Of a stretch of 64,000 nt of DNA, positions 52,271-53,750 are shown one piece after another. The DNA comes from Escherichia phage vB_EcoM_LMP33. The stretch lies in sequence record MK482689.1; one strand, 5' to 3'. The notes beneath the pieces are model-generated. The model saw nothing but the letters and a program-made list of their open reading frames with translations, ran no database searches and was not told where the DNA came from. The position numbers and the translations under genes were made by a program. Every line of letters begins with the position of its first letter. The stretch's first letter is position 1.

Positions 52271-52347
52271 GCACCTATAGCCCAACTGGTAGAGGCAGCA
52301 GACTTAGAATCTGCTCAGTGTGAGTTCGAATCTCTCTAGGTGTACCA
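52271..52347 (+). tRNA. tRNA with UAG anticodon (Leu-type), class I architecture
   Basis: Acceptor GCACCTA/TAGGTGT, anticodon arm GCAGA-CTTAGAA-TCTGC, short variable loop, T-loop GAGTTCGAATCTC, discriminator A, CCA. Confidence 0.55.
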
Positions 52348-52354
52348 AATTAAT

Positions 52355-52430
52355 GCAGGTGTAGCAAAATGGTTATGCGGCTGACTCTTAATCAGTAAGA
52401 TGATGGGTTCAATTCCCTCCACCTGTACCA
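52355..52430 (+). tRNA. tRNA-Lys (anticodon CUU)
   Basis: Acceptor GCAGGTG/CACCTGT, anticodon arm GCTGA-CTCTTAA-TCAGT, T-loop GGTTCAATTCC, CCA. Confidence 0.6.
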
Positions 52431-52436
52431 AACATT

Positions 52437-52512
52437 GGGGTCATAGTTTATATGGTTAAAATTCGAGTTTTGCAAACTTGGGAACTGAGTTCAATTCTCA
52501 GTGACTCCACCA
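52437..52512 (+). tRNA. tRNA-Ala (anticodon UGC)
   Basis: Acceptor GGGGTCA/TGACTCC with G3-U70 wobble (Ala identity element), anticodon arm CGAGT-TTTGCAA-ACTTG, T-arm CTGAG-TTCAATT-CTCAG, CCA. Confidence 0.65.
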
Positions 52513-52518
52513 ATTAGT

Positions 52519-52593
52519 GCATCCATAGTTTAAACGGGAAAATTACAGTCTTCCAAACTGAGGTTGAGGGTTCGATTCCCTCTGGATGCTCCA
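52519..52593 (+). tRNA. tRNA-Gly (anticodon UCC)
   Basis: Acceptor GCATCCA/TGGATGC, anticodon loop CTTCCAA, T-loop GGTTCGATTCC, CCA. Confidence 0.6.
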
Positions 52594-52600
52594 AATTAAT

Positions 52601-52676
52601 GCTCCTATCGTATAATTGGCTATTACGGTTGCCTTGTAAGCAACTTATCAGGGTTCGAATCCTTGTGGGAGCACCA
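52601..52676 (+). tRNA. tRNA-Thr (anticodon UGU)
   Basis: Acceptor GCTCCTA/TGGGAGC, anticodon arm GTTGC-CTTGTAA-GCAAC, T-loop GGTTCGAATCC, CCA. Confidence 0.65.
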
Positions 52677-52773
52677 ATTTAGAGGTCAAGTGAAAGACCG
52701 CTTTGAGTCAACTGAAGACCGTAACAAATCCCACGGAGTTGAGTTAGCGGCACAACTTCAGACCTCTTTCAAC

Positions 52774-52848
52774 ACTCGCTTAGTTTATATGGTAAAACAT
52801 CACCCTTACAAGATGAAGAAAAAGGTTCAAGTCCTTTAGTGAGTACCA
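52774..52848 (+). tRNA. tRNA-Val (anticodon UAC)
   Basis: Acceptor ACTCGCT/AGTGAGT, anticodon loop CTTACAA, T-arm AAAGG-TTCAAGT-CCTTT, CCA. Confidence 0.55.
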
Positions 52849-52849
52849 T

Positions 52850-52927
52850 GTTCCAGTATCCCAATTGGCAGAGGATGCAAGCTCAAACCTTGTACTAGTG
52901 ACGGTTCGAATCCGTCTTGGAACACCA
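52850..52927 (+). tRNA. tRNA with CAA anticodon (Leu-type), class I architecture
   Basis: Acceptor GTTCCAG/TTGGAAC, anticodon arm GCAAG-CTCAAAC-CTTGT, T-arm GACGG-TTCGAAT-CCGTC, discriminator A, CCA. Confidence 0.55.
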
Positions 52928-52932
52928 ATTTT

Positions 52933-53008
52933 GCAGGATTAGTTCAAATGGATAGAGCAACAGTCTACGAAGCTGTTAATAGGGGTTCGAATCCCTTATC
53001 CTGCGCCA
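52933..53008 (+). tRNA. tRNA-Arg (anticodon ACG)
   Basis: Acceptor GCAGGAT/ATCCTGC, anticodon arm ACAGT-CTACGAA-GCTGT, T-loop GGTTCGAATCC, CCA. Confidence 0.65.
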
Positions 53009-53027
53009 ATTTAAAGAGGCTATTTAG

Positions 53028-53585
53028 ATGAGATATTTGAAGTATGCTTCATGGATTTTCTTAGCTTTGTTAGAGCCATTTGCAGCAATCTTAGCAGTTA
53101 TCTTAGCACCTTTTGTAGTGCCATTCTACAGTGAGAAGAAAGGACACTTACCTTTCGGGTTCAGATGGATGGAGACATATGACAACCCAATTGATGGTGA
53201 TGAAGGCCACGTTAAAAGATGGGCTAATATTAGATGGATTGGTAAACTAGGTGTCTACATGCAAAGAGTCGGATGGCTCTGGAGAAACAAAGCTTATAAC
53301 TTCTCTTACCATGTATTAGGAAGAGATGTAAGAGATGTTACTAAGTGGAAAGGTAATATCAACGTAAGTTCTGACCCCGAAGATAATCAGACAGGTTATC
53401 TCCTAATGTGGAATAGTAATGCTTGGGGATTATTCGCTTTTATCCCATCAATTAAAATCTTTGGTAAACAATTTTACTGGAGAATTTATATTGGATGGAA
53501 ACTAAAAAGTGTTGTCCCAGAAGAAAGAGCATTCTCAAGGGAAAGAGTTATGTTGGCATTCTTTATTCATCCACTGAGAAAGTAA
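53028..53585 (+). CDS. hypothetical membrane protein embedded in tRNA array
   Basis: 185 aa with hydrophobic N-terminus (IFLALLEPFAAILAVILAPFVVPF); flanked by tRNA genes. Confidence 0.4.
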   Translation: MRYLKYASWIFLALLEPFAAILAVILAPFVVPFYSEKKGHLPFGFRWMETYDNPIDGDEGHVKRWANIRWIGKLGVYMQRVGWLWRNKAYNFSYHVLGRDVRDVTKWKGNINVSSDPEDNQTGYLLMWNSNAWGLFAFIPSIKIFGKQFYWRIYIGWKLKSVVPEERAFSRERVMLAFFIHPLRK

Positions 53586-53593
53586 AGATTTAA

Positions 53594-53669
53594 AGGGGAT
53601 TAGTTTACAAGGTTAAAACCTCGGTCTTTGAAATCGAAGAAGTTGGTTCAATTCCAACATCCCCCGCCA
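53594..53669 (+). tRNA. tRNA-Gln (anticodon UUG)
   Basis: Acceptor (A)GGGGAT/ATCCCCC with 1:72 mismatch, D-stem GTTT/AAAC, anticodon arm TCGGT-CTTTGAA-ATCGA, T-arm GTTGG-TTCAATT-CCAAC, CCA. Confidence 0.6.
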
Positions 53670-53671
53670 AT

Positions 53672-53750
53672 GCTCCATTACTCCAATTGGCAGAGAGGCC
53701 AGACTTAAAATCTGTGTTATGTATCGGTTCGAATCCGATATGGAGTACCA
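53672..53750 (+). tRNA. tRNA with UAA anticodon (Leu-type), class I architecture
   Basis: Acceptor GCTCCAT/ATGGAGT, anticodon loop CTTAAAA, T-arm ATCGG-TTCGAAT-CCGAT, discriminator A, CCA. Confidence 0.5.

Follow-up and report, generated by a model that had tools for sequence, protein, structure and literature searches.

A long variable arm is found on leucine tRNAs (tRNALeu) everywhere except in animal mitochondria, according to a review of tRNA identity (PMC9976931). The bacterial exception that has been studied is presented as special to Streptomyces, and the leucyl-tRNA synthetase (LeuRS) of Escherichia coli is said to act on type II, i.e. long-armed, tRNALeu only (PMC6614811). Here we describe three genes for tRNALeu with the anticodons UAG, CAA and UAA which lack the long arm and have the type I (class I) architecture. 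They are part of a tRNA array of the Felix O1-like Escherichia phage vB_EcoM_LMP33 and were found in a window of 64,000 nucleotides (sequence record MK482689.1), by which we mean the whole stretch of DNA that was analyzed. Judged from their sequences, the three genes very probably encode functional, leucine-accepting tRNAs of type I architecture that are charged by the host. Most likely they are further members of an uncommon kind of tRNALeu which has been described before and has been little noticed.

The studied bacterial case, described by Fan et al. 2019 (PMC6614811), is a tRNALeu(CAA) of Streptomyces coelicolor which is of type I and coexists with type II tRNALeu in a cell that has a single LeuRS. 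Its 5-nt variable loop ACAGC is similar to the xCAGU of the Leu(UAG) and Leu(CAA) genes in the window, and like these it possesses A73 and a core that depends on the U8:A14 pair. A variable loop of 5 nt was reported to be the minimum for activity of type I tRNALeu (Fan 2019, PMC6614811). The E. coli LeuRS failed to charge this tRNA in vitro (PMC6614811). The variable loop reads A44-C45-A46-G47-C48, and thus has C48 where the window genes carry the U48 of the E. coli type, a difference that might, or might not, be the reason why the E. coli enzyme failed. The S. coelicolor tRNA is furthermore encoded by a single chromosomal gene, whereas the window genes are phage-borne, comprise three isoacceptors and have A15:U48. 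In animal mitochondria, human mt-tRNALeu(UUR) is likewise of type I, with an identity that is based on A73 and A14 and without a long arm (PMC9976931). The animal mitochondrial tRNALeu differ in being organellar and structurally relaxed and in being served by a dedicated mitochondrial LeuRS; a specific sequence relationship of these tRNAs to the phage tRNAs was not found.

Functional evidence is available for the T5-like phage OSYSP (MF402939), whose whole genome contains just two tRNALeu genes, with anticodons UAG and UAA, both of 77 nt. In E. coli, an anticodon-swapped tRNALeu(CGA) derived from MF402939.1 is reported to read TCG as leucine, and the OSYSP-derived 'viral tRNALeu(YGA)' was used in an E. 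coli with a swapped genetic code, where leucine is reported to be delivered regardless of the anticodon (PMC13596443). This preprint credits the characterization of the tRNALeu to Nyerges et al. 2023. Since the tRNALeu genes of OSYSP are all short and leucine is inserted, E. coli LeuRS must charge at least that type I tRNALeu. The OSYSP tRNALeu resemble the window genes in the 5-nt variable loop, the 3-bp D stem, the 11-nt D loop and the encoded CCA, as well as in A14, A15, G18G19, U48 and A73. They belong to another subfamily, with D loop GAAUUGGCAUA and variable loop GUUUU, and do not include a CAA isoacceptor.

What E. coli LeuRS recognizes has been established in some detail. The identity set consists of A73, A14, A15-U48, G18G19, A20a and U54:A58 (PMC9976931; PMC6614811), of which A14 and U54-A58 are additions in the version of Fan et al. 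(PMC6614811). Both the anticodon and the long arm are outside this set; tRNALeu variants without the arm stay active, and the identity of tRNASer rests mainly on the arm (PMC9976931; PMC6614811).

In the window, the + strand holds 25 tRNA genes according to ARAGORN, in an array that spans 49871 to 54946. The Rfam tRNA model RF00005, which has a gathering score of 29 bits, was applied as well. The first-pass annotation, made by hand folding, had placed three tRNAs with leucine anticodons in this array and had described them as class I molecules whose variable loop is short, with discriminator A73, next to Ser and Tyr tRNAs with long arms. Automated folding, which it had proposed as a check, bore this out on every point: ARAGORN gave the same starts and the same anticodons, A73 in all three structures and no long arm (Table 1). 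The three sequences match RF00005 over model positions 1-71 of 71 with E-values of 9e-11 to 5e-7. Their scores are far beyond chance and each exceeds the gathering score, so that all three are full-length members of the family. The variable regions (positions 44-48) are UCAGU (5 nt) in Leu(UAG), ACUAGU (6 nt) in Leu(CAA) and GUUAUGU (7 nt) in Leu(UAA), and none of them forms a stem. A variable region of more than 10 nt forming a stem-loop, which defines class II, is thus absent from the three Leu tRNAs and present in the array's tRNAs for Ser and Tyr.

Table 1. Features of the tRNA array discussed in the text, with coordinates in the window
Feature	Coordinates	Strand	Description
Type I tRNALeu(UAG)	52271..52347	+	77 nt with encoded CCA; ARAGORN, Rfam 57.3 bits
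Type I tRNALeu(CAA)	52850..52927	+	78 nt with encoded CCA; ARAGORN, Rfam 43.6 bits
Type I tRNALeu(UAA)	53672..53750	+	79 nt with encoded CCA; ARAGORN, Rfam 47.5 bits
Tyr(gta), type II comparator	50433-50520	+	88 nt, stemmed long arm; ARAGORN
Ser(tga), type II comparator	51926-52015	+	90 nt, stemmed long arm; ARAGORN
Ser(gct), type II comparator	54774-54866	+	93 nt, stemmed long arm; ARAGORN
tRNA-like gene	51605-51686	+	31.7 bits with the Rfam tRNA model; no ARAGORN call, not annotated in GenBank

In each of the three Leu tRNAs the acceptor stem has 7 bp, the anticodon and T stems have 5 bp each and the discriminator is A73; the D arm consists of a 3-bp stem and an 11-nt loop of the form xAAYUGGYAGA. 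The D loop is CAACUGGUAGA in Leu(UAG) and CAAUUGGCAGA in both Leu(CAA) and Leu(UAA). The ARAGORN structures show a U50-U64 mismatch in the T stem of Leu(UAG) and one mismatch, C27-U43, in Leu(UAA). In minimum-free-energy folding, Leu(UAG) adopted a cloverleaf and Leu(CAA) nearly so, with z-scores for the tRNAs of -0.16 to -1.6. No long arm appeared in the thermodynamic folds of the three Leu tRNAs, a method which is not decisive for the cloverleaf itself and is uninformative for AT-rich unmodified tRNAs.

With respect to identity, the D loops read C-A14-A15-Y-U-G18-G19-Y-A20a-G-A, and together with U8 this means that the U8:A14 pair and the other core tertiary elements are in place in all three tRNAs. 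The final base of each variable loop is U48, and the T loop is UUCGAAU throughout, providing U54, U55, C56 and A58. The only listed identity element without a counterpart is the arm-related position '47n'. The leucine anticodons of the three tRNAs determine what is decoded and have no part in charging. Among the remaining 22 tRNAs of the array, the same Leu-type D loop does not occur. Our own inspection of the three sequences against published identity rules revealed no determinants for other synthetases, i.e. no G3:U70, no long arm for the seryl- and tyrosyl-tRNA synthetases (SerRS and TyrRS) and, as regards the anticodon-reading synthetases, no anticodon that would be cognate.

For comparison with the host, all five tRNALeu isoacceptors of E. 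coli K-12 (leuQPV, leuU, leuW, leuX and leuZ) were run through ARAGORN. In these the D stem has 3 bp, the D loop consists of 11 nt, (G/A)AAU(U/C)GGUAGA, and the discriminator is A73. They resemble the phage Leu tRNAs in D-arm layout, D-loop motif, A73, A15:U48 and type of T loop; the anticodons UAG, CAA and UAA also occur among them. Unlike the phage tRNAs, they are 85-87 nt long and have a stemmed variable arm of 13-15 nt. Further differences are located in the anticodon loop. Phage Leu(UAG), with the loop CUUAGAA (52304-52310), has A37 where leuW has G37, which is the position of m1G37. Leu(CAA) has C38 (loop at 52883-52889) where leuX has A38, and all three phage tRNAs, including Leu(UAA) with its loop at 53705-53711, have C32 instead of the U32 of the host. 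Such changes could affect how the tRNAs are modified or how nucleases recognize them.

The genes are well conserved among related phages. Over a segment of 2.2 kb (51900-54100), the window matches Escherichia phages vB_EcoM_LMP34 (Felixounavirus) and LMP25 with 100% identity, and some 290 further Felixounavirus genomes from phages of Escherichia, Salmonella, Shigella and Citrobacter with 90-99%. The three genes of vB_EcoM_LMP34 carry a tRNA-Leu annotation. Leu(CAA) occurs with at least 95% identity in 247 phage records and Leu(UAA) with at least 99% identity in 215, including REP5 and REP12. In record MK482690 the genes are annotated as tRNA-Leu-TAG, tRNA-Leu-CAA and tRNA-Leu-TAA with the same boundaries as those given by ARAGORN. 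The three genes are thus already known as tRNA-Leu, and their type I architecture is unmentioned in the records. A full-text search of a limited literature collection likewise did not find a phage tRNALeu described as type I. One of the 100% matches to the Felixounavirus tRNALeu(UAA) is at 62026-62103 of GU169904.1, a record for Staphylococcus phage SA1; this record probably includes Felix O1-like sequence and may be mixed or mislabelled.

Short tRNALeu are also found far outside this genus. Over nearly its full length, Leu(UAG) shows ca. 75-83% identity to annotated tRNA-Leu genes of unrelated phages, namely those of Klebsiella, Cronobacter, Pseudomonas, Bacillus, Enterococcus, Mycobacterium, Streptomyces and Gordonia, and the hosts of phages with homologs of type I include Proteobacteria, Actinobacteria and Firmicutes. 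In the loci that were fetched, ARAGORN found one short tRNALeu in Klebsiella phage FBKp34, three in Mycobacterium phage Koguma, two in Streptomyces phage Jay2Jay and two in Bacillus phage P59. These are 74-78 nt long, as compared to 84-93 nt for the Ser and Tyr tRNAs in these loci. A pattern combining the Leu-type D loop, a YAR anticodon, a short variable loop and the T loop retrieved at least 120 loci of uncultivated viruses from IMG/VR, and ARAGORN called 1211 tRNAs in those listed. Among these matches, which were selected for the short form, 150 tRNALeu were short and 50 long, as compared to 1 and 72 for Ser and 2 and 28 for Tyr. A viral sample drawn independently of leucine, with a generic class I D-arm pattern, contained 10 short and 40 long tRNALeu, 0 and 39 tRNASer, and 4 and 13 tRNATyr. 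The ratio from the short-selected loci had suggested that most viral tRNALeu are short, which had to be discarded in view of the independent sample. Short tRNALeu are a recurrent minority among viral tRNALeu, and in both samples Ser tRNAs are almost never without the arm.

The same pattern, applied to species-representative genomes, gave at least 58 short tRNALeu by ARAGORN among the matches listed. Actinobacteria account for many of these, as single genes, for example in Bifidobacterium, Gardnerella, Bombiscardovia and Mobiluncus, and others in the listed set lie within arrays of 13-27 tRNAs (Chryseobacterium, Micromonospora, Acidobacteriota and Deinococcales). The idea that short tRNALeu are phage-specific was therefore dropped. 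On the chromosomes of Bifidobacterium, Gardnerella and Bombiscardovia, a single tRNALeu(CAA) of 75-76 nt is present, in line with the published case of S. coelicolor (PMC6614811). The D arm of these Bifidobacteriaceae tRNAs, UAUCCCAAUUGGUAGAGGA, is also that of Leu(CAA) in the window, and their variable loop xCAGU is closely similar, which suggests exchange of short tRNALeu between cells and phages.

Sequences from phages, viral contigs and genomes were combined in a pool of 226 unique short tRNAs with leucine anticodons. Both A73 and U48 are present in 223 of the 226, and A14 and A15 occur without exception among the members that have a 17-nt D arm (164/164). G18 and G19 are nearly invariant, which is partly imposed by the search pattern. 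The variable loop has 5 nt in 196 sequences, 6 nt in 18 and 7 nt in 7. Stem positions show 5-6 standard pair types each, with 88-100% pairing, except for the T-stem pair adjoining the T loop, which is G-C in 225/226. The variety of pair types reflects compensatory changes, with selection acting to keep the cloverleaf. The combination A15+U48+A73 was counted in other isotypes as a control: it is present in 154/159 short and 47/48 long tRNALeu from the same sources and in at most ca. 43% of any other isotype. When a 17-nt D arm is included, the proportions are 76% for short tRNALeu, 65% for long tRNALeu and at most 9% for other isotypes. Short tRNALeu thus share the body signature of type II tRNALeu. 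The window genes show the features by which the short type is recognized, i.e. a leucine anticodon, a variable loop of about 5 nt, A73 and the Leu-type D arm.

Gene structures, identity elements, conservation and covariation across the family and codon usage together allow us to infer a course for expression and charging and a reason for the loss of the arm. The genes would be transcribed within the phage tRNA array, and the tRNAs would be processed from tightly packed precursors in which the CCA end is already encoded. The host LeuRS is then predicted to charge them because all features that it is known to read are retained, i.e. A73, U8:A14, A15:U48, G18G19 and A20a in a Leu-type D loop, and the T loop with U54:A58. 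A possible reason for the loss of the arm is that it is no identity element for bacterial LeuRS, in contrast to SerRS, and the same difference would explain why the Ser and Tyr tRNAs of this array have kept theirs. As to packing, one nucleotide separates Leu(CAA) from the preceding tRNA-Val (52848-52850), and two nucleotides separate Leu(UAA) from tRNA-Gln(UUG) (53669-53672). This spacing and the encoded CCA imply dimeric precursors that are cut directly by RNase P.

Codon usage is in agreement with a role in translation. The window has a G+C content of 38.8%, and in 64 long open reading frames (ORFs) of the window leucine is encoded by TTA (24%), TTG (13.5%), CTT (27.5%), CTC (7%), CTA (11%) and CTG (17%). 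In E. coli about 50% of the leucine codons are CTG, and the major tRNALeu reads CUG. The anticodons UAA, CAA and UAG cover leucine codons that the phage over-uses, which is the usual codon-compensation role of phage tRNAs. The tRNA with UAA would add decoding of UUA and UUG, that with CAA of UUG, and that with UAG of CUA and CUG and possibly CUU.

Several observations weigh against host charging of functional tRNAs. An isotype classifier was made of hidden Markov models (HMMs) of viral tRNAs in which the anticodon was masked and the variable region left out. The type II Leu profile took first place for only one of the three tRNAs and third place for the two others, in a setting where about half of the controls were misassigned. 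The failure of E. coli LeuRS with the S. coelicolor type I tRNALeu(CAA), and the description of this enzyme as specific for type II, point in the same direction (PMC6614811). The functional support comes from a T5-like tRNALeu of the other subfamily (GAAUUGGCAUA, GUUUU). Finally, Leu(UAA) contains the C27-U43 mismatch, and its minimum-energy structure is not a cloverleaf. The last point, with the U50-U64 mismatch of Leu(UAG), could also indicate decaying or non-functional genes from which the arm was deleted and which persist by hitch-hiking in the array. This we consider extremely improbable, given the near-identity of the genes across hundreds of phage genomes, the Rfam scores well over the threshold, the retention of all invariant core nucleotides and of the encoded CCA, and the abundance of compensatory pair changes in the family.

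Two readings had been offered in the first-pass annotation, unusual Leu isoacceptors or tRNAs with altered identity. The former is strengthened by the complete E. coli leucine identity set and by the wide distribution of the short family. According to the latter, leucine codons would be read by tRNAs charged with another amino acid, or charged ambiguously, so that phage or host proteins are recoded or diversified. Apart from the atypical architecture and the inability of E. coli LeuRS to use one type I tRNALeu (PMC6614811), nothing speaks for this, and it appears very unlikely to us: no element of the leucine identity set is missing, our own inspection showed none of the determinants of other E. 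coli synthetases, and LeuRS ignores both the anticodon and the arm. Furthermore, the three anticodons cover at least 48% of the leucine codons of the phage, whose own proteins would be struck by missense incorporation, and the short OSYSP tRNALeu inserts leucine (PMC13596443).

The loss of the arm may also have been adaptive, more than a neutral deletion that is tolerated. Host defenses that target tRNAs, or tRNA turnover induced by the phage, would recognize the type II tRNALeu of the host, and a short scaffold with an altered anticodon loop would evade them, so that the phage replaces a vulnerable host component. Phage tRNAs have been reported to evolve resistance to host tRNA nucleases (PMC13596443 and references therein). 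The exchanges of G37 (leuW) for A37 in Leu(UAG) and of A38 (leuX) for C38 in Leu(CAA) fit this picture, as does the presence of short tRNALeu in many unrelated phage lineages, while Ser tRNAs stay long (1/73 short, and 0/39 in the second sample). However, no defense system that recognizes the long arm of tRNALeu was found, short tRNALeu also exist as a single chromosomal gene in Actinobacteria (PMC6614811), viral tRNALeu are mostly long in the leucine-independent sample (40/50), and the asymmetry between Leu and Ser is already accounted for by the synthetase identity rules. A recurrent phage adaptation, in which a LeuRS-charged scaffold remains unseen by host nucleases, modification enzymes or regulators directed at tRNALeu, is therefore in our opinion unlikely. 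If true, it would also explain why an engineered code was more durable with virus-derived than with cellular tRNALeu, as described in work cited in PMC13596443.

Leucine-accepting type I tRNAs in coliphages are at variance with the textbook generalization about tRNALeu and with the explicit claim about E. coli LeuRS. The Felix O1-like and T5-like phages, two common groups of coliphages, have short tRNALeu genes only; either E. coli LeuRS accepts suitable type I substrates, perhaps by virtue of A15:U48, or the phage tRNAs work otherwise. The contrast between Leu, where the arm is often lost, and Ser, where it is kept, is a naturally occurring indicator of the synthetases that make use of the arm, and is of relevance for the design of orthogonal or 'firewall' tRNAs.

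Some other members of the array deserve comment. The Met(cat) tRNA called by ARAGORN at 50126-50202 and the Tyr tRNA fall below the Rfam gathering score. In MK482690 the Tyr tRNA and the His tRNA (53863-53938) are labelled 'tRNA-Pseudo', and both Ser tRNAs are omitted. Ser(gct) carries U73 instead of the usual G73, and the 3' end of Ser(tga) is CC, without a full CCA. Between tRNA-Arg(ACG) and tRNA-Gln(UUG), the array is interrupted by an ORF of 185 codons on the + strand (53028-53585), which in related genomes is annotated as a hypothetical protein or putative membrane protein, while some list a holin at this place.

The array also contains a tRNA-like gene without a D arm (Table 1). An acceptor stem, a T arm and an anticodon arm are present, the anticodon being UCU (Arg, AGA codon), and ACCA is encoded at the end; the place of the D arm is taken by just four nucleotides, UCUC. 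Between the anticodon and T stems there is an invariant segment of 22 nt, GUUAAYCGAGUAAnUGGAGUAU, which includes the D-loop-like AGUAAnUGGAG. The G+C content of the gene is 59%, as compared to 39% for the window. No tRNA-Arg(UCU) was called by ARAGORN in the window. Unannotated sequences with 83-89% conservation occur in unrelated large phages (Klebsiella fENko-Kae01 and KNP2, Escherichia SP27 and PD114), and an alignment of five sequences shows compensatory double changes in 7 of the 20 predicted pairs. The gene may encode an aberrantly built tRNA-Arg(UCU).

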